64,000 bases of DNA from Flavobacteriales bacterium (GCA_020852835.1 JADZAC010000002.1:246-64245), one strand, 5' to 3'; counted from the first letter of the stretch, positions 19,125 to 62,714 are shown. The notes: generated from the letters alone by a model not told the origin. Program-made: numbers and translations.

Positions 19125-19152
19125 TCTGCCGTAAAGTTGGCCCAGCGTGTGT

Positions 19153-19793: not shown

Positions 19794-19839
19794 CGGCGCG
19801 ATTGCCCTGCACGGCGGGTTGTTGTGGGATCATCGCCTG

Positions 19840-21096
<1,257 letters not shown>

Positions 21097-21121
21097 TTTG
21101 GCCTCCTTCTTTTTCAGTCGC

Positions 21122-22144: not shown

Positions 22145-22152
22145 TCCCGGGG

Positions 22153-22728
22153 TCATGCTTTACGCGACACTTGGCCGCCTTTCAACTGGTAGTGTTGGCC
22201 ACTTTCCGGGCAGGTGGCATTGCCCTCGGCATCGAATTTCAGCTGGTGCCCGTACTCGCTCATCCAGCCGGTTTGCCGCGCGGGGTTGCCCACGACCAGC
22301 GCGTATGGCGGCACGGTTTTCGTTACCACCGCGCCGGCGCCGATGAATGCGAATTCGCCGATGTCATGGCCGCACACGATGGTGGCGTTGGCCCCGATGC
22401 TGGCGCCCCGCCCCACGTGCGTCCGGGCGTATTGGTCGCGGCGGTTCACCGCGCTGCGCGGATTGATCACGTTGGTGAACACGCAGCTGGGCCCCAGGAA
22501 CACGTCATCATCGCATTCCACGCCGGTGTAAAGGCTCACGTTGTTCTGCACCTTCACGTTGTTGCCCAGCTTAACGCCCGGGCTTACCACCACGTTCTGC
22601 CCGATGTTGCACCGCTCACCCAGGCTGCAGCCCGTCATCAGGTGGCTGAAGTGCCAGATGCGGGTGCCCGCACCGATGGTGCAGCCCTCGTCGATCACGG
22701 CCGTGGGGTGGGCGCTGTAGTTGCTCAT
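22153..22728 (-). CDS. left-handed beta-helix N-acetyltransferase (WbpD-like)
   Basis: 191 aa. Hexapeptide repeats ([LIV]GxxxxI…). Confidence 0.7.
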   Translation of the reverse strand: MSNYSAHPTAVIDEGCTIGAGTRIWHFSHLMTGCSLGERCNIGQNVVVSPGVKLGNNVKVQNNVSLYTGVECDDDVFLGPSCVFTNVINPRSAVNRRDQYARTHVGRGASIGANATIVCGHDIGEFAFIGAGAVVTKTVPPYALVVGNPARQTGWMSEYGHQLKFDAEGNATCPESGQHYQLKGGQVSRKA

Positions 22729-22825
22729 GGAAACGGAGCGCGAAAGTAAGGCCGTGGCGGTGACCCGCCACCGGGGGGCGCGAGTGGCGGGAGCACGGGT
22801 CGGGCACTAATTTTCCGCCCCTTGG

Positions 22826-23437
22826 ATGGATGCGCTCATCGCCCTGCTGGTGGCCGTTGCGGCCAGTTTCATCGGTTCGCTGCAAGCCGGGCTGGTGAAT
22901 ACCGCCGTGCTGGCGGCCACCTTGCGCCATGGGCGGAACGTGGCGCGCAGCACGGCATTGGGCGGGTCGTTGCCGGAGATCCTGTATGCGGGGCTGGCTT
23001 TCGTGGCGGCGAACAGGGTACTGGCCTATACGGAGCATTGGGGCATTACGCCCGGGCGCATCTCGGGCGTGGTGATGGTGGGGCTCGGGCTCTACATCGC
23101 TTTGGTGATGAAGCCCTTCCACATCAAGGAGGAAGTGCAGGTGCGCAGCGGGTTCCGCCGGGGGATGGTGCTGGGCTTGATGAACCCGCAGTTGGCCCTG
23201 TTCTGGTGCGGCGTGCGGCTGGCGATGGAAGCCATGGGCCTGCAAGCCTATGGGTGGGGAGCCTTGGCGGGCTTCAGCTTGGGTGCCTTCATCGGCGCCA
23301 TGGCCTTGCTGTTGCTGCTGATCCGCCTGGGGGGGCACATGCGTGAGCGGATGGCGGACAAGACGCTCATTCGCTTGTTCCGCGCGCTGGGCGTGGTGCT
23401 GGTGCTCGCCGGGGCATGGGCGTGGGTGGCCGGTTAG
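22826..23437 (+). CDS. LysE/RhtB-family amino-acid exporter
   Basis: 203 aa with six hydrophobic segments. The topology matches the LysE family. Confidence 0.65.
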   Translation: MDALIALLVAVAASFIGSLQAGLVNTAVLAATLRHGRNVARSTALGGSLPEILYAGLAFVAANRVLAYTEHWGITPGRISGVVMVGLGLYIALVMKPFHIKEEVQVRSGFRRGMVLGLMNPQLALFWCGVRLAMEAMGLQAYGWGALAGFSLGAFIGAMALLLLLIRLGGHMRERMADKTLIRLFRALGVVLVLAGAWAWVAG

Positions 23438-23467
23438 CGCCTGGTTGACCGGATCGCGAACGGATGC

Positions 23468-24286
23468 TTACGCCCGTGGGTGCAACAAGCCCAGCTTTTC
23501 CAGCGTGCCGTTGAGTGCTGCAAGCGGCCCGGGTGCCGGAGGTTCCACTTTCCAACACACATGCTGCAACCACTCCTGCGCCACCGCCGGGGTGAAACCC
23601 GCGTTCTGCATGACCAGTTCCACCGGGTGCGGGCCGCCCTTCAGCACGTCCGCTTCGCTGCGCAACACGGCCAGAGCCCGTTCAACAACTGCGGCATGGC
23701 GCTGCAGGAAGCCTGTGCCGGCCGTGATCACAAAGCCCGGCCACGGCGCGCGCACCACGTCCACGCACCGCATGACCCCCGCTTGCACCCAGCGCCGGGT
23801 GACGTACTGCTCCCAAAGAAAGATGACCGGGGGGCCTTGCTGCATGCGCTCGGCGGCCCCGGCCATGTTGTGCACCACCTCCAGGTCGGTTTCCAAGGGC
23901 CGCCAGCCCTGCTGTTCGGCATGCAGCAGGGCCATGATGTGGCTGCCACTGCCCATGCGGCTGATGGCGTAGGGGATGCCCCTAAGGTTTCCGGCTTCCA
24001 GATCCAAGCTTGCAGGCACATGAACGCCCCATGGCAAGGCGCTTTCCACAAAGCCGCTCACGATCCGGTGCGGGCCGCCGTTGAGGATGTCGCGCTGCGC
24101 GCCTTCGGTGACCAGCACGGCCATGTCCAGCTCGCCGTCGCGCAGCATTTGGCACATGCGCCCGGTACCCTCATGAACCACATGCCAGTGCAGGTCAATG
24201 CCCGCTTTGCGGAAGTGCCGCTTCTCCATGGCCAGGTGCCACGGAAGGTTGTAGGGCTCGGGCACGCCGGCCACTCGCAGTTTCAT
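23468..24286 (-). CDS. NMT1/THI5-like periplasmic-binding-protein-fold protein without signal peptide
   Basis: Start MKLRVAGVPEPYNLPWHLA at ATG 24286; the ORF track extends to GTG 24358. Similar to SsuA/NMT1 substrate-binding domains. Confidence 0.45.
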   Translation of the reverse strand: MKLRVAGVPEPYNLPWHLAMEKRHFRKAGIDLHWHVVHEGTGRMCQMLRDGELDMAVLVTEGAQRDILNGGPHRIVSGFVESALPWGVHVPASLDLEAGNLRGIPYAISRMGSGSHIMALLHAEQQGWRPLETDLEVVHNMAGAAERMQQGPPVIFLWEQYVTRRWVQAGVMRCVDVVRAPWPGFVITAGTGFLQRHAAVVERALAVLRSEADVLKGGPHPVELVMQNAGFTPAVAQEWLQHVCWKVEPPAPGPLAALNGTLEKLGLLHPRA

Positions 24287-24452
24287 TCCACGCAAAGTAC
24301 TGTGCACAGATCGGACAGATGGGAAGGCCTTGGTCCGAAGCTTGTCCACAGGTTGCACAGATGGGAAAGCCCTTCAACCGGCAGCGATCCGTGTGATCGG
24401 TGAAATCTGTGGAGGGTATTCGATCCGTGGATGGTATTCGCACCGTGCAACC

Positions 24453-25517
<1,065 letters not shown>

Positions 25518-25518
25518 G

Positions 25519-26850
25519 TCAGGCTTTGGCTTTGATGGGGGCGTTCACCGCTTGGCGGCCAATGCTCACGTAGTGGAAGCCTTGGTCCTTCATCTCTTCG
25601 AGGTCGTAAAGGTTGCGGCCGTCGAAGATGGTCTTCTCCTTCATCAGCTCTTCCATGCGGGCCAGTTCCGGGTTGCGGAACACGGCCCATTCGGTGGCGA
25701 TGATCAGGGCGTCGGCCCCCATGAGCGCGGTATACTCATCTTCCGCGAAGTTCACCTTGGCGCCAACGGCTTTCTTCACGTTGTCCATGGCCTCGGGATC
25801 GAACGCGGTGATGGTGGCGCCGGCCTTGGTCAGCGCTTCGATCATGTACAGGGCGGGCGCCTCGCGTATGTCGTCGGTGTCCGGCTTGAAGGCCAAGCCC
25901 CACAAGGCGAAGTGCTTGCCGCGGAGGTCGTCGCCGTAATGGGCCTTGATCTTGCGCACCAAGCTCGCCTTCTGGCGCTCGTTCACCTTCATCACGCTGT
26001 TGATGATCTCGAACTTGTAGCCCGCCTGGTCGCCGCTGTGGGCCAAGGCCAGTACATCCTTGGGGAAGCAGCTGCCGCCGTAGCCGATGCCCGGGAACAG
26101 GAAGCGCTTGCCGATGCGGCTGTCCGTGCCCAGGCCGATGCGCACCTTGTCCACATCGGCGCCAACGGCCTCGCAGAAGTTGGCGATCTCGTTCATGAAC
26201 GTGATCTTCATGGCCAGGAAGGCATTGGCGGCGTATTTGGTGAGCTCCGCGCTGCGCTCGTCCATGAAGAGGATGGGGTTGCCTTGCCGCACGAACGGCT
26301 TGTAGAGGTCTTCCATCAGCTTTTGCGCGCGGGCACTGCTGGTGCCCACCACCACGCGGTCGGGCTTCAGGAAGTCGTCCACGGCGAATCCCTCCCGCAG
26401 GAATTCCGGATTGCTCACCACGTCGAAGGGCACGCGGGCGTGCTTGGCCACCGCATCGCGCACCTTTTCCGCTGTGCCCACGGGCACGGTGCTCTTGTCC
26501 ACGATCACCTTGTAGTTCGTGATGATCTTGCCCAGTTCATCGGCCACCCCCAGCACATATTTCAGGTCGGCGCTGCCATCCTCGCCCGGTGGCGTGGGCA
26601 GCGCCAGGAAGATGATCTGGGCCTGGTCCACGGCTTCCTTCAGGCTGGTGGTGAAGGACAGGCGGCCTTGGCGGATGTTGCGTTCGAAAAGCACGTCCAA
26701 GAGCGGCTCGTAGATGGGCACGTGGCCTTCCTTGAGCCGTTTCACCTTTTCCTGGTCAATATCCACGCAGATCACGTGGTTGCCGGTTTCGGCGAAGCAG
26801 GTGCCTGAGACCAGGCCGACATATCCGGTTCCGATTACCGCTAGGTTCAT
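25519..26850 (-). CDS. ugd: UDP-glucose 6-dehydrogenase
   Basis: [12 protein letters not shown] start. Catalytic GGSCFPKD. 443 aa. Only 1 nt from the UXS start. Confidence 0.9.
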
Positions 26851-26905
26851 TGCTGGGGATGCAGGAACTGCCGCTTATGCGGTGATTTCCCTGTGTTTGT
26901 TTGGT

Positions 26906-28030
26906 TCAGTGGAAGAAGCTCCTCACCGCTTGGGTGATGTGTTGCAGTTGGCCCGCATCCAGCTCGGTGCTCATGGGCAGGGAAAGCACTTCCCGGGCCA
27001 GTTGCTCGGTGTTGGGCAGTGCACCCTGCGGATGTCGGCCGCCTTTGTACGCATGCTGCAGGTGGCAGGGTACAGGATAGTACACCATGGATGGAATTCC
27101 CTGGTTCTCAAGGTGTTTTTTCAAGACATCGCGCTTTCCTCCGGCCACCCGCAGGGTGTATTGGTGGAAAACATGGTTGCTGAAGGGGGAGCGTTCGGGC
27201 AGGGTGAGCTCCGCGATGCCGGCGAAGGCCTGGTCATATGCGGCCGCCGCGCTGTTCCGGGCGCGGGCGTACTCGTCCAAGTGCCGCAGTTTGATGCGCA
27301 GTATGGCCGCTTGCAGCGAATCCAGCCGGCTGTTCACGCCCACCACCTCGTGGTAGTAGCGCTGCTCGCTGCCGTGGTTGCACACCCGGCGGATCTTGTG
27401 CGCAAGCTCATCGCTGTTGGTGAACAGGGCGCCACCGTCGCCGTAGCAGCCCAGGTTCTTGCTGGGGAAGAAGCTGGTGACGCCGATGTCGCCCATGGTG
27501 CCGCTCTTGCGCTTGCCGTTGGCCCCGCTGTGGTCGGCGCCAATGCTTTGGCAGGCATCTTCCACCAGGTACAAGTTGTACTCGCGGGCAATGGCCAGCA
27601 TGGCGTCCATGTCGGCACTTTGGCCGAACAGGTGCACCGGCACGATGGCCTTGGTCTTGGGGGTCACTTTGCGGGCCACATCGGCGGGGTCCAGGTTGAA
27701 GGTGCCCGGCAGCACATCGGCAAACACCGGAACCAGGCCCAGCAGGGCCAGTACCTCCACGGTGGCCACGAAGGTGAACGAGGCGGTGATCACTTCATCT
27801 CCAGGCTTCAGCCCCAAGGCCATCATGGCCACTTGCAGCCCATCGGTGCCGTTGGCGCAGCCGATCACATGCTTCACCTTCAGGTATTCCGCCAGCTCCT
27901 GCTCGAAGGCTTTCACTTGCGGGCCATTGATGAAGGCCGCCGTGCTGATCACTTCCTGCAATGCGGCGTCCACCTCGGGCTTGATCTTCTCATATTGGCC
28001 GACGAGGTCGACCATTTGGATGGCTTTCAT
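26906..28030 (-). CDS. DegT/DnrJ/EryC1/StrS-family sugar aminotransferase (WbpE-like)
   Basis: Start MKAIQMVDLVGQYEK at 28030. PLP-lysine context FFPSKNLG. The 693-aa ORF is a run-on artefact. Confidence 0.85.
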   Translation of the reverse strand: MKAIQMVDLVGQYEKIKPEVDAALQEVISTAAFINGPQVKAFEQELAEYLKVKHVIGCANGTDGLQVAMMALGLKPGDEVITASFTFVATVEVLALLGLVPVFADVLPGTFNLDPADVARKVTPKTKAIVPVHLFGQSADMDAMLAIAREYNLYLVEDACQSIGADHSGANGKRKSGTMGDIGVTSFFPSKNLGCYGDGGALFTNSDELAHKIRRVCNHGSEQRYYHEVVGVNSRLDSLQAAILRIKLRHLDEYARARNSAAAAYDQAFAGIAELTLPERSPFSNHVFHQYTLRVAGGKRDVLKKHLENQGIPSMVYYPVPCHLQHAYKGGRHPQGALPNTEQLAREVLSLPMSTELDAGQLQHITQAVRSFFH

Positions 28031-28144
28031 GTACCGGTTCGGGCTTCTGTGCCCGGCCAACGGCGCGCGGGCGGCGCGAAGGTAAGCTGCGGTGCAAAGC
28101 GCCTGCATGCCTGCACAACCGGCCACGGCTAACTTCGCCTCCCC

Positions 28145-28903
28145 ATGAAGCTCAATTCCCTGTTCCTCCCCTTTGCCCTGCTGGCCGGTATGGTGCCCTG
28201 CAGGGCCCAAAGCGGCATTCAGGACACCTCCATCACCTTGGTCCCGCTCACCATCAGCTACGCCTACCAGCTGCCCAGCGGTGAAATGGCCCAACGCTTC
28301 GGCGCCAACAGCAACCTGGGGTTCAGCGCATCGGTCAAGTTCAAGAACAACTATTCCCTGGGCCTGGAGGGCGGATACCTCTTCGGTAACAAGGTGAACG
28401 AGCGCAATGTGTTGCGCGAAATGACCACCACCAACGGGGTGATCGTGAACCAGGATGGTGACCCGGCCAACGTTCTTTTCTTCGAACGCGGCTACACGGT
28501 GATGGCCTTTGCGGGCAAGGTGATCCCCATTGCCGGGCCCAACCCCAACAGCGGTATCCTGCTCAAGCTCGGCGGCGGCTACCTGGCGCACAAGCTGCTC
28601 ATACAGCACCAGAACGATGTGCTGCCAGCCCTGGAAGGCGATTACCTCAAGGGCTACGACCGGTTGTCGGCAGGGCCGGTGGGCATGTTCTTTGCCGGCT
28701 ACCAGCACCTCGGCAACAACCGCTTCATCAATTTTATGGTCGGCTTTGAACTGCAGGTGGCGTTCACCCGTTCGCTGCGCCCGTACAATTTCGATTCGGG
28801 AAGGGCCGACAACGACACCCATGTGGACGGCCTCAGCGGCTTGCGCTTCGGTTGGACTTTCCCCATTTACAAGACGCGCGACACCCGTGAATACTACCGC
28901 TGA
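28145..28903 (+). CDS. hypothetical secreted/outer-membrane protein
   Basis: Signal peptide MKLNSLFLPFALLAGMVPCRAQ. Alternating amphipathic beta-strand-like pattern. C-terminal aromatic residue. Confidence 0.45.
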   Translation: MKLNSLFLPFALLAGMVPCRAQSGIQDTSITLVPLTISYAYQLPSGEMAQRFGANSNLGFSASVKFKNNYSLGLEGGYLFGNKVNERNVLREMTTTNGVIVNQDGDPANVLFFERGYTVMAFAGKVIPIAGPNPNSGILLKLGGGYLAHKLLIQHQNDVLPALEGDYLKGYDRLSAGPVGMFFAGYQHLGNNRFINFMVGFELQVAFTRSLRPYNFDSGRADNDTHVDGLSGLRFGWTFPIYKTRDTREYYR

Positions 28904-30168
28904 TGCCCTTGCTGTACGACTTGGGCATCGGGGCATACCATGCGGCCATCCGGCTTGCGGCGGCATGGAACCCGAAGGCCAAGGCATGGGTGCAAGGCAG
29001 GAAGGAATGCTGGGACCGGCTGGAACAGGCGGCCCCGCAACTGCATGGCTGCCTGTGGATGCATTGCGCCAGCGTGGGCGAGTTTGAACAGGGCAGGCCC
29101 GTGCTGGAGGCCATCAAGGCACATCGCCCGGAGCTGCCGGTGCTGCTCACCTTCTTCAGCCCAAGCGGATACCAAGCGCGGAAGAACGAGCCGCTGGCCA
29201 CGCACGTGGAGTACTTGTCGCCGGACGGCGCCGCCAACGCGGAGAGGCTGTTGGCCCTGGTGAACCCCGTTGCGGCCGTTTTCGTGAAGTACGAGTTCTG
29301 GTATCACCACCTGCACGCCCTGCAGCGCAGGAAGGTGCCGGTGTTCCTCATTTCTGCCCTGTTCCGCAAGGACCAACCCTTTTTCCGGTGGTACGGCGGC
29401 GCATGGCGCAGCATGCTGGGCTGCTTCAAGCAGATCTTCACGCAGGATGAAGCTTCCTTGAAGCTGCTTGAGGGCATTGGCGTAGGGCATGCAGCGGTGG
29501 GCGGTGATGCACGGTTCGACCGTGTAGCGGCCATTGCGGCAGGCCAGGAGGAATTGCCCTTGGCCCGGGCCTTCGCCGGCAATGGCCCAGTGCTGGTGTG
29601 CGGCAGCACCTGGCCCAAGGATGAGGCGCTCCTAGCCGGGGCGCTGCGCGGCATGGGTGCGGGTGCGCCCAAGTGCATGGCCGTGCCGCATGAGCTGCAC
29701 GAGGCACAACTGGCCGCCATCGAACGCGATTTCCCCAAACCGCTGGCCCGCTGGAGCGAATTGGAGCAAAGCCCGGTGCTTAACGTGGAAACCATGCTGG
29801 GCGCAACGCCGCAGGGCACGTTGCTGGTGGACCGCATGGGCCTGTTGGCACGCCTGTACCGCTACGGCAGCGTGGCATACGTGGGCGGCGGGTTCACGGA
29901 CGGCATCCACAGCGTACTGGAAGCAGCGGCTTGGGGCGTACCGGTGATCGTGGGACCGCGGCACAAAAAATTTCCCGAAGTGCAGGGGCTGATCGAGGCG
30001 GGGGCAGGGCTGGAGGTGCGGAACTCGGCCGAATTGCAGGCGGCGCTAGGCTGTTGGCTAAAGGATCCTCAGGCGCTGAGGAGAGCTTCCGAGGCAGCGG
30101 CCCGCTATGTGAACGAGCGGAAAGGCGGGGCTGGGCGGGTGGCAGGCACGGTATTGGCGGCAATTTGA
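28903..30168 (+). CDS. kdtA: 3-deoxy-D-manno-octulosonic acid (Kdo) transferase
   Basis: 421 aa. N-terminal HCASVGE motif and GT-B C-terminal domain. Confidence 0.85.
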   Translation: MPLLYDLGIGAYHAAIRLAAAWNPKAKAWVQGRKECWDRLEQAAPQLHGCLWMHCASVGEFEQGRPVLEAIKAHRPELPVLLTFFSPSGYQARKNEPLATHVEYLSPDGAANAERLLALVNPVAAVFVKYEFWYHHLHALQRRKVPVFLISALFRKDQPFFRWYGGAWRSMLGCFKQIFTQDEASLKLLEGIGVGHAAVGGDARFDRVAAIAAGQEELPLARAFAGNGPVLVCGSTWPKDEALLAGALRGMGAGAPKCMAVPHELHEAQLAAIERDFPKPLARWSELEQSPVLNVETMLGATPQGTLLVDRMGLLARLYRYGSVAYVGGGFTDGIHSVLEAAAWGVPVIVGPRHKKFPEVQGLIEAGAGLEVRNSAELQAALGCWLKDPQALRRASEAAARYVNERKGGAGRVAGTVLAAI

Positions 30169-38692: not shown

Positions 38693-39454
38693 CTATCCCA
38701 GTGTTTTCGCCAACCAAACGTCCAGTATGTTGTTGAACTCGGCGGGTTGTTCCATCATGGCCGCATGGCCGCACTGGTCGATCCAATGCAGTTCACTGTG
38801 GGGGATCAGGGTGTGGAATTCCTCGGCCACGTGCGGCGGGGTAATGGTATCCTGCCTGCCCCAGATCAGGCATACGGGCATCTTCAGCTTGGGCAGCTCG
38901 GCCGCCATGTTATGGCGTATGGCGCTTTTGGCCAACGAGAGGATGCGGATCAGTTTCGCCTTGTCATTGACCGTCTCAAAGCACTCGTCCACCAGTTCAT
39001 CGGTGGCGAACTTCGGGTCATGGAAGGTTACGGCCACTTTTTTACGGATGAACTCCTTGTCTTCGCGACGCGGAAAGCCACCGCCGAACGCATTTTCATA
39101 CAGGCCGCTGCTGCCGGTGAGGGTGAGGGTGCGCACTTGGTGGGGGGGACGGCTGCAATGCACCAAGGCCACATGGCCGCCCAAGGAGTTGCCCAGCAGG
39201 TTGATCTCCCGCAGGCCCAAGTGTTGGATGAACCTCCCCAGGAAATCCGCCAATGCCTTCACGTTGGTGTTGAGCATGGGAAGGGAGTACAACGGCAGGA
39301 TGGGCATTACCACGCGGTAGTTCCGAGAAAAATGGGCGGTGGTGTCGCCAAAGTTGCTCAAGGCCCCGAACAGGCCGTGCAAAAACAGCAGCGGCGGCCC
39401 TTCGCCCACATCGATGTATCGGAACTCCCCGGCCTCCTTCAGCGTTTGCCCCAT
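38693..39454 (-). CDS. alpha/beta-fold hydrolase
   Basis: Nucleophile elbow GNSLGG. Start MGQTLKEAG at 39454 (ORF track: 39511). Confidence 0.7.
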   Translation of the reverse strand: MGQTLKEAGEFRYIDVGEGPPLLFLHGLFGALSNFGDTTAHFSRNYRVVMPILPLYSLPMLNTNVKALADFLGRFIQHLGLREINLLGNSLGGHVALVHCSRPPHQVRTLTLTGSSGLYENAFGGGFPRREDKEFIRKKVAVTFHDPKFATDELVDECFETVNDKAKLIRILSLAKSAIRHNMAAELPKLKMPVCLIWGRQDTITPPHVAEEFHTLIPHSELHWIDQCGHAAMMEQPAEFNNILDVWLAKTLG

Positions 39455-39510
39455 GCTTTTTCGTGGATGCCCAAATGTAATTGCTGCTGACAAACTCGCC
39501 GTGCCATGCA

Positions 39511-41169
39511 CTAGCGCATGAGGAGCACGTACTTGTCGTTCCGGAACAATTCATGGGGGAACCAGCGGGCCGCCAAGGGCATCCGGGCCAACTGTGCCGG
39601 TTGTGCCAGCAGGTGGGTTACGCCGTATTGCGCCAATAGCCCGCCGGTGTCCGAACGGGGTTGTTCCAGGCCTTCCAATAACAAGGCATTGTCCTGCTCG
39701 CGCTGCTTTTGGTCCAGATAGGGGTTGCCCATGGTGCTGGCCGTGGCCACCACATGCCGCGCGGTGCACAGCATGGGCCACACACTGAGGTCCAGGTCGC
39801 ACAGCACCACGCCGTTCCACGGCACTTCCCGGCGGATCACTGCGGCAGCTTGGGCACCCGGTTGGTCGGCTTGGAAGGCCAGATCGCGGTTGCGCACGGC
39901 GATCACATCGCGCCGTGTGGCGTAGGAAGGGTACTTCAGGGTGCATCCTGTTGCGATCAGCAGGAAGAAGGCCATGACCAGGTCCGCGCGCGGCACTTCC
40001 CGTTGCGGGGAATGCCGCAGTTGGACCCGGCTCCAGGCCCATTGGCACAAGGCGGTGAAGGCCAACCCGGCGAAAATGGACAGCACGGCACTGGCGTAGA
40101 AATAGAAATGGAAGGTGGGCAGCAAGGCGGGCAGGTTGATGCCCATGTGCTTGTCCAGCACACTGATCGAATAGCTGTAAATGAACAGGCATGTGGCCAA
40201 TATGAGCCAGCTGAGCAGGATGGTGCGGGCACGCCTGGGGGTCCCGAGCTTGCCGGATCGCCGCAGCATCAGCACCAACCCTGCGGTACCGAACAGCATG
40301 AACCACGTGAGGTTGTGGTGGAGGAGCACTCCGATGTGCTGCCAGGTGAGCGCATAGTAGGTGAACAGGAAGCCTTCGCGGTTGGCCACATGCATGCCGC
40401 CCATGAGCAAGCGCCAAGTGAGCGGCATGCTGGCCAGCAGAAATCCGATGGCGGCAAAGAGGCAACTGGTAAGGCATAGGCGGAGCGTGCGGTTGTCCTT
40501 GTTCCGCCGCGCTTGTACAGCCTGGATACCGGTGAGCACGCCGATCATCAGCACGGCGATCATGGCCGGGGCCGCGTGGGCCAGGAAGGTGAGCCCCGCG
40601 CCCAGGCCCGCCACCAGTGCGGGGCCTTGCCGCCCGGTGCGGAAGGCCTTGTCGATGAGCATGAGCTCCACGTAGAAGAGGCTTTGGCTGAAGGAGACCG
40701 GGATCAAGCGGTGGCTGTAAGTGGCCACGACCCACCCGGGTTCCTGGCCTACGGCCCAGAACAAGTAGGCGGCGGTGGCGGCCACGGCGCGTACCGGCCC
40801 CAGCAATTGCCGGCACATGGCAAAAAAAGCAATGGGGGCGAGCAAGTTCGCGAAGGGCCCGAGGCGCACGATGAGGTGTGCCGCCGGCAAGCCGGTAATG
40901 GCGGTCAGCAGGGCTTCCAACCAGGTGATCAGCGGCGTGTACCACATGCCGCCGCCCAAATAGGTGGGGTCTTGCCCATAGTGCCCTTCCAATAGCGCTT
41001 GCACGAAGGCTTCGTCGCGGTGCAGGTCGATCGTGGCGCCGCGTTCCAGGCCGGCAACGGCCTTCCATGCGGGGAGAAAGGCCAAGGCCAGCATGAAGAG
41101 CAGCAGGAGCACGGCCATCCAGTTGATCTGCTGGTGCGCGCGCATGGACCGGTGCCACAACATGCTCAT
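39511..41169 (-). CDS. GT-C-fold polytopic membrane glycosyltransferase (ArnT/PMT/arabinofuranosyltransferase-like), putative polyprenyl-P-sugar-dependent transferase
   Basis: 552 aa with at least 11 hydrophobic helices. Acidic DE motif (HRDEAF) in the first extracytoplasmic loop. Soluble C-terminal ~150-aa domain. First gene downstream of the DprE/UbiA genes. Confidence 0.55.
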   Translation of the reverse strand: MSMLWHRSMRAHQQINWMAVLLLLFMLALAFLPAWKAVAGLERGATIDLHRDEAFVQALLEGHYGQDPTYLGGGMWYTPLITWLEALLTAITGLPAAHLIVRLGPFANLLAPIAFFAMCRQLLGPVRAVAATAAYLFWAVGQEPGWVVATYSHRLIPVSFSQSLFYVELMLIDKAFRTGRQGPALVAGLGAGLTFLAHAAPAMIAVLMIGVLTGIQAVQARRNKDNRTLRLCLTSCLFAAIGFLLASMPLTWRLLMGGMHVANREGFLFTYYALTWQHIGVLLHHNLTWFMLFGTAGLVLMLRRSGKLGTPRRARTILLSWLILATCLFIYSYSISVLDKHMGINLPALLPTFHFYFYASAVLSIFAGLAFTALCQWAWSRVQLRHSPQREVPRADLVMAFFLLIATGCTLKYPSYATRRDVIAVRNRDLAFQADQPGAQAAAVIRREVPWNGVVLCDLDLSVWPMLCTARHVVATASTMGNPYLDQKQREQDNALLLEGLEQPRSDTGGLLAQYGVTHLLAQPAQLARMPLAARWFPHELFRNDKYVLLMR

Positions 41170-41579
41170 GGCCGGGAGGGTGTTGAGGTGCGGACATAGT
41201 CCACGGCCTCATCGCGCTCTTCCTGGTCCAGCAGCAAGGGCGTGTCGCAGATGCGCATGCACAACCGCGGGCCCAGCAGGGTGCTGCGCATCCAAATGCG
41301 GCGGTCCCAGCGCGGATCTTCCGTGCGGACCAGCCGCTCCTGCGGGTCCCAATACCAGCGGCTGTGCACCGCAGGTTGCCCCGGCGGCCCCATCAGGTCC
41401 AAAGTGCCGTCCGCATGCAGCACCATCTGCCCGGGGGTGTTGCCCACGGGCAGCAGGAGCGGGGTGGCGCGTTGATAGGTGCCGGCCAGTTCAGCGCGGC
41501 CTACCGGCGGCCAGGCCCGGTGCACGGCGAATGCTCCGAGCAAAGCCAGTGCCGCGGCCATGAACGCGAAGCGGCGCAT
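41166..41579 (-). CDS. small membrane-anchored hypothetical protein translationally coupled to the GT-C gene
   Basis: N-terminal hydrophobic anchor MRRFAFMAAALALLGAFAV. ATGA overlap with the GT-C start. The start may instead be 41609. Confidence 0.45.
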   Translation of the reverse strand: MRRFAFMAAALALLGAFAVHRAWPPVGRAELAGTYQRATPLLLPVGNTPGQMVLHADGTLDLMGPPGQPAVHSRWYWDPQERLVRTEDPRWDRRIWMRSTLLGPRLCMRICDTPLLLDQEERDEAVDYVRTSTPSRP

Positions 41580-41619
41580 GATCCCCGTACTGGTGGGTGC
41601 GGTAGCCATGGTCGTGGGC

Positions 41620-42222
41620 TCAAGCGGGGGTGCTCCGGAAGGGTTTGTAGTGTTGTTGCGCGGCCAAGGCCATCATGGGCCGATCACTGGCCGTGTCGCC
41701 GAAGGCATGAATATAGTCCACTTTGTCCATGCCGATTAGGCCGCGGATCCGGCGGACCTTCTCCTCACCCTTGCAGTTCGGGGTGGCCAGGCGCCCGGTA
41801 TAGCGGCCCTCTTCCTGTTCCAGTTCCGTGGCGATGCAACCCAAGCGGTGCAGCTGGCACCAAGGTGCGGCCCATAGCGAACAGGAAGCGGTGACGATGA
41901 ACACTTCATGGCCTTGTTGCCGTAGCCCTGTGATGTGGTCCAAGGCGCCATCGCGCAGCAACTGCGGCATACGTTCCCGGGCGAAACGCGCGGCTTGCTG
42001 CGCCAGGCCGCCCACCAGCCGTGTGCCGAAGGCCTTCCGCACCAAGGTCCGCTTCGGAGCGTCTGCCGGTGCCAGCCGCAGGCGGGCCAGGCACCACAAC
42101 GGAAGCACACCGGCCAGCAGCCACCAGGTACGGGCCTTGCCCCGGGTGAAGTACAGGAACTCCAGCATGGTATCGGCCCGGGTGAGGGTGCCGTCCAGAT
42201 CGAACAGGGCGATGGTCCTCAC
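41620..42222 (-). CDS. HAD-IB-family phosphatase
   Basis: Motif I LFDLDGTLT. Motif IV GDTASD. Proposed GTG start at 42222 overlapping the TGA of the upstream gene (GTGA). The alternative ATG at 42321 would overlap 102 nt. Confidence 0.6.
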   Translation of the reverse strand: MRTIALFDLDGTLTRADTMLEFLYFTRGKARTWWLLAGVLPLWCLARLRLAPADAPKRTLVRKAFGTRLVGGLAQQAARFARERMPQLLRDGALDHITGLRQQGHEVFIVTASCSLWAAPWCQLHRLGCIATELEQEEGRYTGRLATPNCKGEEKVRRIRGLIGMDKVDYIHAFGDTASDRPMMALAAQQHYKPFRSTPA

Positions 42223-44336
42223 AGGTTGAGCCGTTTGAAGATCCCCTCGGGGAGCAGGGTGATGAAAAGCATGATCCAGCGCCAACGGCCCAGGACATAG
42301 ACGGTGTTGCGCTTTCGGCAATAAGCGCGGAAGATGCCTTGCGCCGCCTGTTGCGCCGTGGCTGTGAGCGGGGCTGGCAGAGGCAGGCCCTCGGTCATGC
42401 GGGTGCGTACGAAGCCGGGCTTTACCGTGAGCACATGCACCCCGGAGCGGTGCAGCCGGTTGCGCAAGCCGCTGAGGTACGCCGTGAGCCCTGCTTTGGC
42501 GCTTCCATAAAAGTAGTTGCTGGCGCGGCCGCGGTCACCGGCCACCGATGAAATGCCGATGATGGTGCCGCACCCGCGTTGCTCCAGGTCGCGGGCGGCC
42601 TCTTCCAGGATGCTCACGGCTCCGGTGTAGTTCACGGCCATGGCACGCAAGCCTTCGGTCGGGTCTTCCTGTGCAGCGGCTTGGTCCGGCAGCAGGCCGA
42701 AGGCGCATACTACGATGCCGGGCCGTGGATCGAGCGCGGCATAGCAAGCTGCATGCCCTGAGGTGTCCTCGGCATCGAAAGGCACCACCACGCATTCGCC
42801 GCCGGTTTCCGCTTGGATCGCTTCGCACAGGTTCCGGCCTTGTTCGCTGTTGCGCAGGGCCAGTACCAGCGGATGGCCCCGGCGTGCAAATTCACGCGCC
42901 AGCGCGCCGGCCATGCCCGAGCCGGCGCCCAAGACCAGCACCCGCCGCGGATCGAACCCGGCGGTGGCGGGGGCAGGGCCCAGCAATCCGAGCCGTTCGG
43001 AGAGGGCCGTGCTGAACCGGCCTTGCCCGTAAACGGCGGCGATCCGCCGGAATTCTTCCAACCGCGGGTAGGTCTGCTGCAGCATGGCGGCGGACATGCG
43101 CGCGTCCTTGGCCAGGTAGATCCGGCCGCCGGCTGCGGCCACGCGCCGGTCCAGGCGGTCCAGCGCTTCCAGCGTGCCGGTGCGCAGCGGGATGTCCAAG
43201 GCCAGTGTATAGCCTTCCATGGGGAAGCTCATCGGCGAAGTGGCCGATCCGGGGCCAAACCGCTTGAGCACCGCCAAGAAGCTCACCATGCCGTGTTTGC
43301 GCAGTTCCTCCAGCACCTCGCCCATCACCCTCCGCCCGTCTTTCAACGGCACCACGAATTGGTATTGCACAAAGCCGCGCCTGCCGTAGATCTTGTTCCA
43401 TTCGCCCACGGCATCCAGCGGATGGAAGTAGGGGGCGTAGTGCACCAGCGTGTCTTTGCCGCTGCCGTCCGCCTTGAGGTGGTAGAGCAGGTTGAAGATG
43501 CGCACGGTGAATGGCGAGAGCACGAACCCCGGGAAGAAGAACGGTACCTTGACGAGGGTTTTGCCATGCGGGCGCAGCGGCTCGCGGGAGGCCTTGCCAT
43601 TCAGCTCGGAGGCTTCGGCGTGCTCGCCCAGCAGGAGCACGGAGCGGCCTTGGTGGCGGCCTTGGGCCATCAGGTCGATCCATGCCACGTTGTAGGTGCT
43701 GTGCCGGTGCTCCTCGAATTTGGCGAACAAGTCGTCCAAGTCGCGGCATTTGATGCTGCGTTGCCGGATGTAGGCCGAGGTGACGGGCCGGAGCTGGATC
43801 ACGGCCTCCAGGATGAAGCCCGTGAGGCCCATGCCGCCGCAGGTGGCCCGGAACAGGTCGGCGTGCATGGCGGGCGAGCACATCACCTGTTGGCCATCAC
43901 CGGTAAGCAGGGTGATCGAGGTTACGAATGCCGAGAAGCTGCCGTGCACGTGGTGGTTCTTGCCGTGGATGTCCCCGGCGATGGCCCCGCCGATGCTCAC
44001 CTGCCGGGTGCCGGGGGTTACCGGCAGAAAGAAGCCTTGCGGCACGATCCGCAGCAGGACTTCGTCCAGCAACAGGCCGGCGCTGCAACGCAGGGTGCAC
44101 GCGGCCTTGTCCAGCTCAAACACATCCTCCAGCCCGGCGCCGGCCATCATGCGGCGGCCCAAGGAGGCATCCCCGTAGGAGCGCCCGTTGCCGCGGGGTG
44201 CCAGGGCCGCACCCTTGGCCACGAGTTGCCGGGCATCGCGCTGCCCGCGCGGCCACCACACGGTGCCTGTTTGTTGCGGGAACAGGCCCCAGTTGCTCCA
44301 CTTGCCGTGCTCAGATCGCATAGAGGATGATGGCAA
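42219..44336 (-). CDS. fused FAD-linked oxidase (DprE1-like, N-terminal) and short-chain dehydrogenase/reductase (DprE2-like, C-terminal)
   Basis: 705 aa. The N-terminal ~440 aa carry the FAD-binding PCMH-type motif GNGRSYGD and an oxidase fold. The C-terminal ~250 aa carry a Rossmann fold (VLVLGAGSGMAG) and catalytic YGSAKAG (YxxxK). The start is 44336 or 44321. Confidence 0.7.
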   Translation of the reverse strand: MPSSSMRSEHGKWSNWGLFPQQTGTVWWPRGQRDARQLVAKGAALAPRGNGRSYGDASLGRRMMAGAGLEDVFELDKAACTLRCSAGLLLDEVLLRIVPQGFFLPVTPGTRQVSIGGAIAGDIHGKNHHVHGSFSAFVTSITLLTGDGQQVMCSPAMHADLFRATCGGMGLTGFILEAVIQLRPVTSAYIRQRSIKCRDLDDLFAKFEEHRHSTYNVAWIDLMAQGRHQGRSVLLLGEHAEASELNGKASREPLRPHGKTLVKVPFFFPGFVLSPFTVRIFNLLYHLKADGSGKDTLVHYAPYFHPLDAVGEWNKIYGRRGFVQYQFVVPLKDGRRVMGEVLEELRKHGMVSFLAVLKRFGPGSATSPMSFPMEGYTLALDIPLRTGTLEALDRLDRRVAAAGGRIYLAKDARMSAAMLQQTYPRLEEFRRIAAVYGQGRFSTALSERLGLLGPAPATAGFDPRRVLVLGAGSGMAGALAREFARRGHPLVLALRNSEQGRNLCEAIQAETGGECVVVPFDAEDTSGHAACYAALDPRPGIVVCAFGLLPDQAAAQEDPTEGLRAMAVNYTGAVSILEEAARDLEQRGCGTIIGISSVAGDRGRASNYFYGSAKAGLTAYLSGLRNRLHRSGVHVLTVKPGFVRTRMTEGLPLPAPLTATAQQAAQGIFRAYCRKRNTVYVLGRWRWIMLFITLLPEGIFKRLNL

Positions 44337-45210
44337 AGGTGAGCAGCCAGCCCAGGATGATCAAGCGGATGGGCCGGTCCTTGAAGACCAGCTTGGAGGG
44401 GTCGCCGGTGCGTTGTTCCACCAGGGTGAGCTGGAAATAGCGCATCATGCCCAGCACCACGAAGCCGCTGGTGATGTACACTTTGTCCGAGCCCAGCCTC
44501 CCGGTAACCTCGCTGCTCACGGTGTACATGATGTAGGACTGTACCACCAAGGCGGCCAGTGTGATCATGCTGGCGTCTACGAAGGGCAGGTTGTAGCCGC
44601 GCAGGCTGGGGCGCAGCTCCTTGCCGCCGCCGGATTGCACTAGGTCATCCCGCCGTTTGGCCAAGGCAAGGAACAGTGCCAGCAGGAAAGTGATCAGCTC
44701 GATCCATTCCGAAACCGGCACCCGGGCCAAGATGCCGCCGGCATGGACGCGCAACAGGAAACCGGCGGCGATGATGGCCACGTCCACGATGGGCACGTGT
44801 TTGAGCCACAAGGAGTAGAGCACGTTCATGGCCATGTAGGCCGCCAAAACCCAAGCGAAACGCGGCTCCACCAGCCATGCGCCCCACAAGGCGGCCAGCG
44901 CCAGCAGGCCACTGATCCACGGTACATGGGCCGGGTCCACTTCACCCGAGGCGATGGGGCGCAGGCGCTTCACCGGGTGCAGGCGGTCCTGCTCCATGTC
45001 GCGCAGGTCGTTGAGCAGGTATACGGCCGAGGCGGCCAGGCTGAAACAGAAGAAGCCCAGTACCGTGCGCTCCAACACGGCTTCCCGGGTGATCGCCTCA
45101 CCGAAGAACGCGGGAAAGAACACAAAGGCGTTCTTGATCCATTGCTGCACGCGGAGCATGCGCAGCAAGGTGCCGGACCTGAAGGAGCCGTGGGCGTTCT
45201 GTGATCCCAT
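44311..45210 (-). CDS. UbiA-family polyprenyl-phosphate phosphoribosyltransferase-like prenyltransferase
   Basis: Start MGSQNAHG at 45210 (cat at 45208-45210). Asp-rich motif NDLRDMEQD. 8-9 TM helices. The 457-aa ORF is a run-on into the mraZ promoter region. Confidence 0.7.
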   Translation of the reverse strand: MGSQNAHGSFRSGTLLRMLRVQQWIKNAFVFFPAFFGEAITREAVLERTVLGFFCFSLAASAVYLLNDLRDMEQDRLHPVKRLRPIASGEVDPAHVPWISGLLALAALWGAWLVEPRFAWVLAAYMAMNVLYSLWLKHVPIVDVAIIAAGFLLRVHAGGILARVPVSEWIELITFLLALFLALAKRRDDLVQSGGGKELRPSLRGYNLPFVDASMITLAALVVQSYIMYTVSSEVTGRLGSDKVYITSGFVVLGMMRYFQLTLVEQRTGDPSKLVFKDRPIRLIILGWLLTFAIILYAI

Positions 45211-61920: not shown

Positions 61921-61945
61921 GCGGAAGTACAGGGTAGGGAACGGT

Positions 61946-61984
61946 GGCGGCGTGCGTTGAAGAACGTGCGTCGCCGCTGTTTTG
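61946..61984 (+). terminator. GC-rich hairpin (ggcggcg…cgccgc) followed by TGTTTTGG; candidate intrinsic terminator of the dcw/yqeY transcript
   Basis: Read directly from the sequence. Lies between yqeY (+) and the convergent response regulator gene. Confidence 0.5.
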
Positions 61985-62000
61985 GGCCTTGGGCCCCGTG

Positions 62001-62714
62001 TTAGACCACCTGCAGCTTGAAGCCGATGCCATGCACGTTCACGATGCGTACGCGGTCATCGTGGCGCAGGTATTTGCGCAGCCGGCTGATGAACACGTCC
62101 AGGCTGCGCCCCAGGAAATAGCTGTCGTCGCCCCATACCATGTTCAACAAAAGCTCGCGCGGCAGCACCTGGTCCGGCTGCATGGCCAGCAGCCGCAACA
62201 CGGCGGCTTCCTTCTTGGTAAGCCGCCGTTCTTCCGCGGGGTGGGAGAGGGTCTTGTTCCGATCGTCGAAGGTGAACTCCCCGATGGTGAACACCTCGCG
62301 ATCCTGGCCATCGTGCCCCTTGTTGCGCGTGCGCCGCAGGATCGCCTCGATCCGCAGCACCAGTTCATCGATGCTGAACGGCTTGGTGATGTAGTCGTCG
62401 CCCCCGGCCTTGAAGCCGGCGATGCGGTCTTCCGGCTGCCCCTTGGCCGTAAGAAAGATGATGGGCACCTTCTGGTCGGTGATGCGCATGTCCTGCGCCA
62501 GGCTGATGCCGTCCTTCTGGGGCAGCATCACGTCCAACAGGCACAGGTCGTACCGGTTGGCGTTGAAGTGCATCAGGCCTTCTTTGCCGTCGCGGAACAG
62601 GTGCACGTCGTAGCCGTGGCGCGTGAGGCCGTCCTGCACCACGAAACCCAGGTTCTCGTCATCCTCCACATAGAGCAAGGTGCCCTTGGCCCCGCCAGTG
62701 TTTTCCTTTTTCAT
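62001..62714 (-). CDS. OmpR-family two-component response regulator
   Basis: Start MKKENTGG at 62714. Receiver domain with LLDVMLP. C-terminal winged-helix trans_reg_C domain. Confidence 0.88.
   Translation of the reverse strand: MKKENTGGAKGTLLYVEDDENLGFVVQDGLTRHGYDVHLFRDGKEGLMHFNANRYDLCLLDVMLPQKDGISLAQDMRITDQKVPIIFLTAKGQPEDRIAGFKAGGDDYITKPFSIDELVLRIEAILRRTRNKGHDGQDREVFTIGEFTFDDRNKTLSHPAEERRLTKKEAAVLRLLAMQPDQVLPRELLLNMVWGDDSYFLGRSLDVFISRLRKYLRHDDRVRIVNVHGIGFKLQVV

Follow-up and report, generated by a model that had tools for sequence, protein, structure and literature searches.

Gene content and genomic contexts of the locus

The operon comes from an uncultured Flavobacteriales MAG and consists of five co-oriented genes, all on the minus strand (Table 1), within a 64-kb window, by which we mean the whole stretch of DNA analysed. 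The tight packing and common orientation of these genes had been noted in an earlier reading of the sequence alone (hereafter the sequence-only reading), and both are confirmed along with the coordinates. The attribution to a Bacteroidota genome is likewise backed by two proteins encoded in the window, GldB and GldC, and by the Flavobacteriales names of the closest homologues. Overlaps between neighbouring operon genes measure 4–26 nt: the GTG start of the HAD gene overlaps the stop codon of the gene upstream (GTGA junction) and the ATG start of the GT-C gene does the same (ATGA junction). The fused oxidase/SDR ORF probably starts at ATG 44321 and not at TTG 44336, because a database protein 100% identical to it is 700 aa long.

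Table 1. Features of the operon and the evidence on which each assignment rests
Feature	Coordinates	Strand	Size, start or evidence
Polyprenyl-phosphate 5-phosphoribosyltransferase (UbiA superfamily, Rv3806c/PPPRS type)	44311..45210	-	299 aa; profiles and PDB phmmer
Fused oxidase/SDR, whole ORF	42219..44336	-	start probably ATG 44321
DprE1-like FAD oxidase domain (approximate residues 40-452 of the fusion)	42981..44219	-	NF053785, 4aut
DprE2-like SDR reductase domain (approximate residues 462-705 of the fusion)	42222..42953	-	NF053786, PRK07102, 21gq_C
HAD-IB phosphatase, predicted polyprenyl-P-ribose-5-phosphate phosphatase (PRP-type)	41620..42222	-	200 aa; TIGR01490
Bitopic partner protein	41166..41609	-	147 aa; predicted TM helix and beta-barrel
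GT-C-fold membrane glycosyltransferase, unannotated family	39511..41169	-	552 aa; AlphaFold fold comparison

In the window the operon is flanked by dcw genes, a hydrolase gene and gliding-motility genes. The five-gene set is repeated in at least four different contexts among Flavobacteriales MAGs, its neighbours being dcw genes in the window and at locus L084, Cupin_8 and GH3 genes at L086, an aminotransferase gene at L091, L092 and L095, and DUF5679 and SRAP genes at L094. The overlapping start and stop codons, together with a gene order repeated in four unrelated contexts, place the arrangement beyond chance.

These contexts give no ground for deducing function from the dcw neighbourhood, as had been attempted: dcw genes adjoin the operon in just two cases, the window and the closely related L084, and not at L086, L091, L094 or L095. 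As to the LPS/O-antigen genes that had been reported nearby, nucleotide-sugar and Kdo-transferase genes were located 10–22 kb off; they are not conserved neighbours, and the function deduced from them is unsupported. The operon is neither embedded in nor adjoins a polysaccharide locus (the closest sugar genes are at least 10 kb away), and this position outside any such locus is a new feature. A T9SS cargo gene had also been placed in the vicinity; no Por_Secre_tail domain was found among the window ORFs scanned. Searches for a flippase gene (GtrA, SMR, MATE) found none in the operon or in the scanned ORFs of the window, and none (MATE, SMR/GtrA-type) at L084, L086, L091, L094 or L095; L088, by contrast, has an SMR-like gene. 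That no flippase is encoded at the locus is also new.

Enzymes of the predicted donor pathway

The UbiA protein, whose sequence includes LLNDLRDMEQDR, was most similar to the decaprenyl-phosphate phosphoribosyltransferase models NF008977 (E = 9.8e-69; 232.0 bits, cut-off 234) and NF008978 (206.8 bits, cut-off 207), falling less than 2 bits short of both cut-offs. In the NCBIfam profile search the three DPPRS models gave E-values of 1e-47 to 1e-68, and other prenyltransferase models 5e-14 or weaker, except for the HAD-UbiA fusion model NF006088 (2.6e-57). Among PDB sequences searched with phmmer, solved Rv3806c (8j8j) matched residues 15–293 with E = 4.7e-42; the next UbiA structure was 4tq3 (8e-7). 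The NDxxDxxxD motif reads NDLRDMEQD and aligns with NDVRDVEAD of Rv3806c. Residues of this motif, located in cytoplasmic loop II, are needed for the activity of ORF15 and Rv3806c (PMC11127046). The L084 orthologue is also 299 aa long. It appears, as the sequence-only reading had it, that the protein is of the Rv3806c type, since it groups with Rv3806c over its full length and away from quinone, haem, chlorophyll and archaeal-lipid prenyltransferases; by homology it would be a PPPRS, with a predicted PRPP-dependent transfer of ribose-5-phosphate.

The phosphatase scores 118 bits against TIGR01490 (HAD-IB; cut-off 98) and has the motifs DLDGT (DxDxT nucleophile type) and GDTASD; it aligns weakly (E = 3.9e-5) with PRK08238, a HAD-UbiA fusion model, over the HAD portion at the model's N-terminus. 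One gene separates it from the PPPRS gene. A HAD gene adjoins UbiA-DprE1/E2 in 10 other loci (L001, L015, L024, L031, L033, L034, L079, L084, L086 and L093). Acidimicrobiia, which belong to Actinomycetota, also have a HAD gene beside the cassette. A HAD-family phosphoribose phosphatase is moreover a standard part of three-component pentofuranose systems (Kelly et al. 2024, PMC11127046), whose survey includes a split phosphatase gene in one phage example. The earlier view of the HAD enzyme as a further departure from the actinobacterial scheme is thus unsupported.

The oxidase half of the fused protein covers positions 32–449 of the 449 of DprE1 model NF053785 (E = 1.2e-125), with 420 bits, below the equivalog cut-off of 500, and its alignment with M. 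smegmatis DprE1 (4aut; E = 1.4e-84) reaches the last residue of the latter. In that alignment DIHGKNHH and the AKD lysine are kept; the Cys targeted by benzothiazinones is Ala. The reductase half matches DprE2 model NF053786 (E = 4.1e-59; 200 bits, below the cut-off of 250) and PRK07102 (298 bits, above the cut-off of 267). Its best SDR in the PDB is solved DprE2 (21gq_C; E = 2.6e-32, runner-up 2.6e-15), and it possesses a glycine-rich NAD(P) motif (GAGSGMAG) and a YxxxK-type catalytic motif (YGSAK). The identification of the FAD oxidase/SDR as DprE1-DprE2 is upheld by the end-to-end DprE1 alignment, which includes the C-terminal substrate domain; the oxidase half is a divergent, fused homologue of DprE1. 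The fused protein has no signal peptide and would therefore be cytoplasmic. For each donor enzyme, the best match was the characterised mycobacterial counterpart, over the full length and with catalytic motifs intact.

The oxidase-reductase might nonetheless have another substrate or product, so that the lipid-linked sugar would not be arabinofuranose and the donor would be polyprenyl-P-ribofuranose, a keto form or another epimer. The scores of both DprE domains below their NCBIfam equivalog cut-offs speak for this, as do related systems that make xylofuranose with other epimerases and the acceptance of more than one pentofuranose by the Citrobacter GT-C (PMC11127046). We consider it highly improbable, given the full-length alignments to DprE1 and DprE2 with their catalytic motifs kept, the DprE1/E2 homologues in candidate systems of surveyed Araf-containing glycans (Kelly et al. 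2024, PMC11127046), the requirement for DprE1 and DprE2 in D-Araf glycosylation of P. aeruginosa pilins (bioRxiv 10.1101/2020.04.19.049825) and the presence of both half-reactions in one polypeptide, which fits complete epimerisation.

The UbiA-DprE1/E2(-HAD) cassette is also found in Roseivirgaceae, Cyclobacteriaceae, Aquirufa, Chitinophagales, Chishuiella, Sediminibacterium, Phnomibacter and on a Chondrinema plasmid. Chishuiella is a cultured carrier, and the phosphoribosyltransferase of the Chondrinema plasmid has already been named by RefSeq. Such a system had been called unexpected in Bacteroidota, a statement that the occurrence of the cassette in several other members of the phylum does not support. 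The core of the sequence-only reading holds; its novelty was overstated because of these cassettes and of the three-component systems already described (Kelly et al. 2024, PNAS).

The GT-C protein, its partner and their link to the cassette

No Pfam or NCBIfam family was matched by the 552-aa membrane protein (no Pfam match at E up to 5), and a profile of its family matched no PDB sequence at E up to 10. Its AlphaFold model (pLDDT 86, called a confident prediction) has a GT-C fold, with a multi-span membrane domain, a first periplasmic loop bearing conserved acidic residues and a periplasmic C-terminal alpha/beta domain (residues about 420–552). The closest solved structure by structural alignment is AftA, a DPA-dependent arabinofuranosyltransferase (14% identity). 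Conserved residues of the first periplasmic loop are D48, R51, D52 and D67, of which the first three are kept in 86–99% of 142 family members; the D48/R51/D52 cluster resembles the catalytic pair of AftA, D128/R132 (PMC10265970). The 'DE' motif described earlier for this loop is present as D52-E53, with D52 retained family-wide and E53 not conserved.

Membership of GT85 (AftA) by sequence was rejected (no GT85, Emb (GT53) or AftD Pfam match, in addition to the 14% identity), as was a GT83/GT39-like assignment (ArnT, PMT_2, PMT): the window protein matches neither PF13231 nor PF02366, and 1 of 22 relatives has a PMT_2 match (E = 0.0068). In GT136 (Citrobacter ORF12), for which ArnT is nearest by sequence, 11 TM helices are combined with a beta-rich C-terminal carbohydrate-binding module (PMC11127046), an architecture from which that of the 552-aa protein differs. 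The family comprises about 960 clusters at 50% identity, from Bacteroidota, Chloroflexota, Acidobacteriota and other phyla, and is new in being unannotated, with no Pfam/NCBIfam model. Also new is the conserved lipocalin-like partner of the GT-C. This 147-aa protein matched no family; an N-in transmembrane helix (residues about 7–32) precedes a predicted periplasmic eight-stranded lipocalin/avidin-like beta-barrel.

Cassette-linked GT-Cs occur throughout the family's Flavobacteriales clade. At L091, L094 and L095 the HAD phosphatase is joined via a TM helix to the partner-protein domain in one polypeptide (blastp E = 6e-10). This fusion, present in one lineage, ties the donor pathway physically to the GT-C module; from it and the recurring gene set we argue that the genes work together. 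If they were instead two independent modules lying side by side, the cassette would feed another transferase, and the partner and GT-C would use another donor, e.g. polyprenyl-P-hexose. Each module does occur without the other. The partner and GT-C pair has no cassette within 10 kb at L081, L085 and L087 (GCA_026129465.1 and GCA_031371785.1 are lineages with a pair lacking an adjacent cassette), and more distant GT-C family members have none nearby at L083, L089 and L090. The cassette lies beside unrelated GT-Cs in L093 (PMT_2), Chondrinema (GT39 and DUF2723) and Chishuiella (a 502-aa protein), and this GT-C family was found at none of 80 GTDB loci around DprE1/E2. Because of the cassette-free members, the GT-C family as a whole is not tied to arabinofuranose. 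For the operon itself, however, independence of the modules is quite unlikely: the junctions have overlapping start and stop codons, the five-gene order persists in four unrelated contexts, the fusion unites both modules and no second GT-C is nearby in the window.

The recurrent phosphatase::TM::barrel fusion also points to a partner that couples donor synthesis with transfer. A broader proposal, tentative and in our view doubtful, is that the 552-aa GT-C and its bitopic partner represent a new CAZy-level GT-C family in which the partner links cytoplasmic donor synthesis to periplasmic transfer and could spare a dedicated flippase. Were such coupling true, an environmental Flavobacteriales clade would have a previously unrecognised D-arabinofuranose-containing envelope glycoconjugate.

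Predicted pathway and comparison with known systems

Profile searches, homology to solved structures, fold comparison and conserved synteny support reading the operon as a GT-C transferase together with a DPA-type pathway to a lipid-linked arabinofuranose donor; this core of the sequence-only reading withstood every computable test proposed for refuting it. We propose, with a probability of roughly 0.7, that the five genes constitute a single operon whose function is extracytoplasmic D-arabinofuranosylation, making it a variant among the 'three-component' pentofuranose systems. The predicted steps are: (i) on the cytoplasmic face, the UbiA-family enzyme would move ribose-5-phosphate from PRPP to polyprenyl phosphate, presumably undecaprenyl phosphate; (ii) the HAD-IB phosphatase would take off the 5-phosphate; (iii) the cytoplasmic fused DprE1-DprE2 would oxidise and re-reduce C2', giving polyprenyl-P-D-arabinofuranose (these three steps by homology); (iv) a housekeeping flippase, or else the transferase complex, may flip the donor across the membrane, with no gene assigned to this step; and (v) the GT-C, acting with its membrane-anchored lipocalin-like partner, would pass arabinofuranose to a periplasmic acceptor by means of the Asp/Arg cluster of its first loop, as fold, conserved residues and synteny suggest. 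Counted against the pathway were the lack of a flippase gene, the UbiA, DprE1 and DprE2 scores below equivalog cut-offs and the existence of cassette-free pairs.

As acceptor, our first guess would be a polysaccharide or a glycan of the LPS type. The GT-C might alternatively arabinosylate Ser/Thr or other residues of proteins, as TfpW does on P. aeruginosa pilins, with the small protein in a TfpX-like accessory role; in Pseudomonas the same donor genes are indeed used, along with an interacting GT-C and accessory protein (bioRxiv 10.1101/2020.04.19.049825). Protein glycosylation seems unlikely, however, since in none of the examined contexts does the operon include a pilin gene or another obvious substrate gene, the family alignment shows a conserved C-terminal N-P-Y motif in place of a WWDYG-type oligosaccharyltransferase motif, and the alpha/beta C-terminal domain is common to the polysaccharide-modifying GT-Cs AftA, AftD and ArnT (PMC10265970). 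In a third scheme, lipid A or the LPS core would receive a pentofuranose in the manner of ArnT, altering surface charge or packing without decorating a polymer. This would suit an operon that, like lipid A modification operons, stands alone outside an O-antigen/EPS locus; there is a Kdo transferase gene at a distance of some 10 kb, and the lipocalin-like partner could bind lipid. The scheme is very unlikely given the missing PMT_2/ArnT sequence match (no more than 1 of 22 family members reaches E = 0.007), the better structural matches to AftA and oligosaccharyltransferases, and the absence of Kdo-transferase proximity at L086, L091 and L094.

The established systems with a matching scheme are the three-component extracytoplasmic pentofuranose systems, such as ORF15/ORF14/ORF12 of Citrobacter youngae O1/O2 with auxiliary epimerases (Kelly et al. 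2024, PMC11127046). They combine a UbiA-type PPPRS and HAD phosphoribose phosphatase, a GT-C for periplasmic transfer and, for Araf, DprE1/E2 homologues, and the operon likewise encodes PPPRS and PRP, GT-C and DprE1/E2 homologues together. It differs in missing a canonical flippase gene (MATE/SMR/GtrA), in a GT-C with no detectable ArnT-like sequence relation and an alpha/beta C-terminal domain instead of the beta-rich module of ORF12 (GT136), in its added lipocalin-like partner, in the fusion of DprE1 and DprE2, and in standing alone, whereas the published systems lie inside the O-antigen or EPS locus of the modified glycan. Bacteroidota are not represented among the published examples (PMC11127046).

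With the mycobacterial/corynebacterial DPA pathway (Rv3806c, Rv3807c, DprE1, DprE2; Aft/Emb) the operon shares a homologous first enzyme and both epimerase subunits, and its GT-C has AftA as best structural match, with an Asp/Arg pair on the first long periplasmic loop. Unlike in that pathway, the phosphatase is HAD-IB and not PAP2, the epimerase is one polypeptide with alanine for the benzothiazinone-target cysteine, a GtrA-like Rv3789 counterpart is missing and undecaprenyl phosphate probably takes the place of decaprenyl phosphate as the lipid.

In the pilin D-arabinofuranosylation system of P. aeruginosa Pa5196/PA7 (PsPA7_6246-6249 with TfpW and TfpX), donor and transferase genes are unlinked, the transferase lies beside the pilin gene and a GtrA-like gene is present, whereas here one operon holds the genes, with neither a substrate gene nor a GtrA-like gene. 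Like the pathway predicted here, that of P. aeruginosa is a Gram-negative route to a D-Araf donor, with PPPRS, DprE1 and DprE2, and its GT-C is accompanied by a small accessory protein, a role that our partner protein may share. The native host of the Pa5196/PA7 system does not require a dedicated flippase, and the components interact as a complex (bioRxiv 10.1101/2020.04.19.049825).

Gene layout and the predicted enzymes of donor synthesis

Third-position GC is high in all five minus-strand ORFs of the operon, which are closely packed (see the table). The divergent mraZ gene, the head of the dcw cluster, lies 358 bp from the first gene of the operon, and genes for GldB and GldC are found just downstream. 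The source is an uncultured Flavobacteriales bacterium; an NCBI protein from a MAG with this name shows 100% identity to the fused oxidase/SDR. A sigma-70 promoter scan found none, with a tool whose coverage excludes Bacteroidota promoters, and terminator predictions were at shuffle level.

Coordinates of the operon genes, of their neighbours in the window and of compared features in other contigs
Feature	Sequence	Coordinates	Remark
UbiA-family prenyltransferase	window	44311..45210	26-nt overlap with the fused gene; 11 nt if start is the ATG at 44321
Fused DprE1-DprE2 (oxidase/SDR)	window	42219..44336	overlaps the HAD gene within GTGA
HAD phosphatase	window	41620..42222	10-nt gap to the partner gene
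Lipocalin-like partner, 147 aa	window	41166..41609	overlaps the GT-C gene within ATGA
GT-C protein, 552 aa	window	39511..41169	
Alpha/beta hydrolase	window	38693..39511	rejected as sixth operon member
Nucleotide-sugar/envelope gene block	window	17275-30168	
DUF433/DUF5615 pair	window	19153-19793	toxin-antitoxin-like
ORFs without Pfam/NCBIfam match	window	3641-4660, 15732-16424, 16204-17199, 61944-62837	sizeable
HAD::TM::lipocalin-like barrel fusion	L091	12100-13134	
HAD::TM::lipocalin-like barrel fusion	L094	10100-11140	
HAD::TM::lipocalin-like barrel fusion	L095	10100-11143	
Cassette in polysaccharide locus	L079	7108-15950	Chishuiella changwenlii DSM 27989
Cassette beside PMT_2-family GT-C	L093	7474-12681	Bacteroidota-like genome (2.27-Mb contig)
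Pentofuranose system	L088	898-5419	MT837543.1
Tandem GT-C-family paralogues	L090	7837-11177	558 and 555 aa

The alpha/beta hydrolase gene follows the GT-C gene in the window and in its close relative L084 only. The adjacency to the dcw cluster, which the sequence-only reading had offered as a functional clue, is confined to the same two sequences and was discarded as such; nor was the T9SS cargo gene that it placed nearby found among the scanned window ORFs. Elsewhere in the window, nucleotide-sugar and envelope genes form a block that resembles a pathway to a di-N-acetylated uronic acid. Besides two UDP-glucose/GDP-mannose dehydrogenase-family genes, the block has genes for a CpsB-like phosphatase, an NDP-sugar dehydratase, an epimerase, a GFO/MocA oxidoreductase, a hexapeptide acetyltransferase, a Kdo transferase and a DegT aminotransferase, and the DUF433/DUF5615 pair is inserted among its sugar-nucleotide genes.

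In a profile scan, the UbiA protein matched three decaprenyl-phosphate phosphoribosyltransferase models with E-values of 1e-47 to 1e-68, and other prenyltransferase models at 5e-14 or weaker, except for the HAD-UbiA fusion model NF006088 (2.6e-57). The solved Rv3806c structure aligns with residues 15-293 (E = 4.7e-42), NDLRDMEQD standing opposite NDVRDVEAD; the Citrobacter enzyme and its mycobacterial counterpart both need residues of the NDxxDxxxD motif to be active (PMC11127046). The protein is 2 bits short of the NCBIfam equivalog cut-off. By the profile models and the structure alignment it is thus nearer to Rv3806c-type phosphoribosyltransferases than to other prenyltransferases, as had been proposed.

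The assignment of the oxidase half to the DprE1 type also held: residues 40-452 of the 705-aa fused protein match DprE1 end to end (NCBIfam model, E = 1.2e-125; M. smegmatis DprE1, 1.4e-84), and both DIHGKNHH of the FAD site and the lysine of AKD are retained. Residues 462-705 match DprE2 (E = 4.1e-59; solved DprE2, 2.6e-32). Since both domains score under the curated equivalog cut-offs, they are treated here as divergent homologues, and isofunctionality is not taken as proven. The fused protein has no signal peptide and its reductase half requires NAD(P)H; epimerisation would therefore be expected in the cytoplasm, which bears on the debated cellular site of this step. Cys394 of M. smegmatis DprE1, the residue to which benzothiazinones attach covalently in the mycobacterial enzyme, is replaced by an alanine in the window protein (GYTLALD versus GWNVCVD), and the enzyme would be naturally insensitive to these compounds.

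The third enzyme is a HAD-IB phosphatase (TIGR01490 above cut-off; DLDGT and GDTASD motifs present) with weak similarity to the HAD portion of PRK08238, a model of HAD-UbiA fusions. A phosphatase of this family had been regarded as a departure from the actinobacterial scheme; it is the norm outside Mycobacteriales, and accompanies the cassette (UbiA, fused DprE1-DprE2 and HAD) in Acidimicrobiia too. The homology behind the predicted donor steps is strong.

The predicted membrane transferase and its family

No Pfam or NCBIfam match was obtained for the 552-aa protein, even at E-values up to 5 across 22 relatives (one relative reached E = 0.0068 for PMT_2), or, at the same limit, for the small protein in scans of the two collections. 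The profile of the GT-C family gave chance matches only against PDB sequences, and a tblastn search of plasmids gave none. A Foldseek comparison agrees with a GT-C fold for the 552-aa protein; such a fold points to a GT-C using a lipid-phosphate-linked sugar, and does not by itself specify donor or acceptor. The positive charges of the N-terminus place it, by prediction, in the cytoplasm and the loop following TM1 in the periplasm. Across 142 diverse relatives, conservation is 86-99% for the loop residues D48, R51, D52 and D67; H198, H354, R490 and the N-P-Y motif at 482-484 are conserved as well. The corresponding loop of AftA has its catalytic Asp128 held in place by Arg132 (PMC10265970).

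A word-indexed search retrieved 39 relatives, all of them from Flavobacteriales MAGs and annotated as hypothetical. In an exhaustive HMMER search with the family profile, 963 cluster representatives reached E ≤ 1e-3 (470 of these ≤ 1e-30), Chloroflexota and Vicinamibacteria proteins among them, and again all 'hypothetical'. The family is large and is named in no database; it makes a concrete candidate for recognition as a new family of glycosyltransferases, and its predicted catalytic loop is open to mutation. One contig, L090, carries two family members in tandem beside RodA/PBP-type genes, with no cassette nearby.

Linkage of the cassette, the partner protein and the predicted transferase

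The five-gene order is kept in L084, with the same neighbours as in the window, and in L086, with other neighbours. A four-gene version, again in different surroundings, is found in L091/L092, L094 and L095 (UbiA, DprE1-DprE2, a HAD protein of 344-347 aa and a GT-C that matches the family HMM with E of about 1e-200). The long HAD of these loci is the phosphatase joined through a transmembrane helix to a partner-protein domain, the window's small protein matching residues 225-313 of the L091 fusion in blastp (E = 6e-10). The fusion is therefore a bitopic protein with a cytoplasmic phosphatase and a periplasmic barrel, which fixes the topology; it connects the GT-C module with the donor pathway, and suggests how donor synthesis and transfer may be organised across the membrane.

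Homologues of the partner protein lie directly upstream of the GT-C gene in all Flavobacteriales loci examined (L084, L085, L086, L087 and L081/82). In L085, L087 and L081 the pair has no cassette within 10 kb, and comparison of homology match lists found no DprE1-DprE2 on those three contigs. In a neighbour-joining tree, cassette-linked GT-Cs are spread across the Flavobacteriales clade, with the unlinked ones of L085 and L087 nested among them. More distant members (L083, L089 and L090) are also unlinked to a cassette, and the family was absent from all 80 GTDB loci that were retrieved with DprE1/E2 at their centre. What links donor and GT-C is the operon structure, its recurrence and a gene fusion. 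The most likely function of the operon, with a probability of roughly 70%, is in our view to make polyprenyl-P-D-arabinofuranose, from which a dedicated complex of GT-C and partner would transfer the sugar to a periplasmic acceptor.

Distribution and relation to known systems

The view that such a pathway is not expected in Bacteroidota does not stand. Roseivirgaceae, Cyclobacteriaceae, Aquirufa, Chitinophagales and Chishuiella all have the cassette, and Sediminibacterium and Phnomibacter are among the named sources of homologues; a 73%-identical homologue is already labelled decaprenylphospho-ribofuranose 2-oxidase by JGI, and RefSeq names a decaprenyl-phosphate phosphoribosyltransferase adjoining DprE1/E2 homologues on a Chondrinema litorale plasmid. 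On this plasmid (NZ_CP111066.1) the cassette is accompanied by acyltransferases, a DUF2723 protein and two proteins of the GT39 family. The Chishuiella cassette is part of a GT1/acetyltransferase/GT2/EpsG polysaccharide locus and is followed by an unannotated 502-aa protein without family, and in L093 the cassette lies beside a PMT_2-family GT-C. Since the cassette is found with several unrelated GT-Cs, it is a mobile donor module for which the present GT-C family is one of several recipients. The clade of the window has no member in culture; Chishuiella and Chondrinema are cultured Bacteroidota and are usable as experimental proxies. The L093 locus is flanked by T9SS-tailed (Por_Secre_tail) proteins.

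A tblastn search of phages with UbiA gave one match, in a putatively viral sequence from a human faecal sample (L088, 'UNVERIFIED: Bacteriophage sp.'). It encodes a compact canonical pentofuranose system: a UbiA 43% identical to that of the window, an NAD-dependent epimerase, a HAD as a protein of its own, an SMR/EamA-like transporter of 118 aa and a DUF6044 protein of 565 aa, which may represent another unrecognised GT-C family. As DprE1/E2 are absent, the sugar is probably ribo- or xylofuranose.

Mycobacteria, whose D-arabinofuranose pathway is a major drug target, and a few Proteobacteria are the best-known bacteria with this sugar in their envelopes. From the locus and its relatives it seems that Flavobacteriales of freshwater and wastewater type, as yet uncultured, also make a lipid-linked D-Araf donor, and that they pass it to a transferase family without a name in any database. 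Literature searches on DprE1/DprE2 in Bacteroidetes, or on D-arabinofuranose in Flavobacterium, found nothing.

Three-component systems for extracytoplasmic pentofuranose addition were established by Kelly et al. 2024 (PMC11127046). They combine a polyprenyl phosphoribose synthase of UbiA type, which has a HAD phosphatase domain, with a MATE or SMR flippase and a GT-C (founding family GT136); auxiliary epimerases are added, and these are DprE1/E2 homologues where the sugar is Araf. They were stated to be widespread, including in glycans of unknown structure; the examples listed come from Proteobacteria, Actinobacteria, Bacillus and phage, with none from Bacteroidota (PMC11127046). In contrast to these, the window operon stands outside any glycan locus, its epimerase is a fused DprE1-DprE2, and its GT-C comes from another family, so far unannotated, whose C-terminal domain is of the AftA/AglB-like alpha/beta type in place of a carbohydrate-binding module. 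The operon also encodes a conserved lipocalin-like partner, fused to the phosphatase in some relatives, and lacks a flippase gene, GtrA, SMR and MATE genes being absent from the operon, the scanned window ORFs and the related loci examined. The P. aeruginosa pilin system offers precedents in its accessory TfpX, dispensable GtrA-like component and cytoplasmic DprE1, and its donor enzymes form a complex with the GT-C (bioRxiv 10.1101/2020.04.19.049825). The locus is a variant of the three-component systems and does not represent a different kind; the concept is already published, with widespread occurrence predicted, and it is the transferase family, the partner protein and the fusion that are undescribed and testable.
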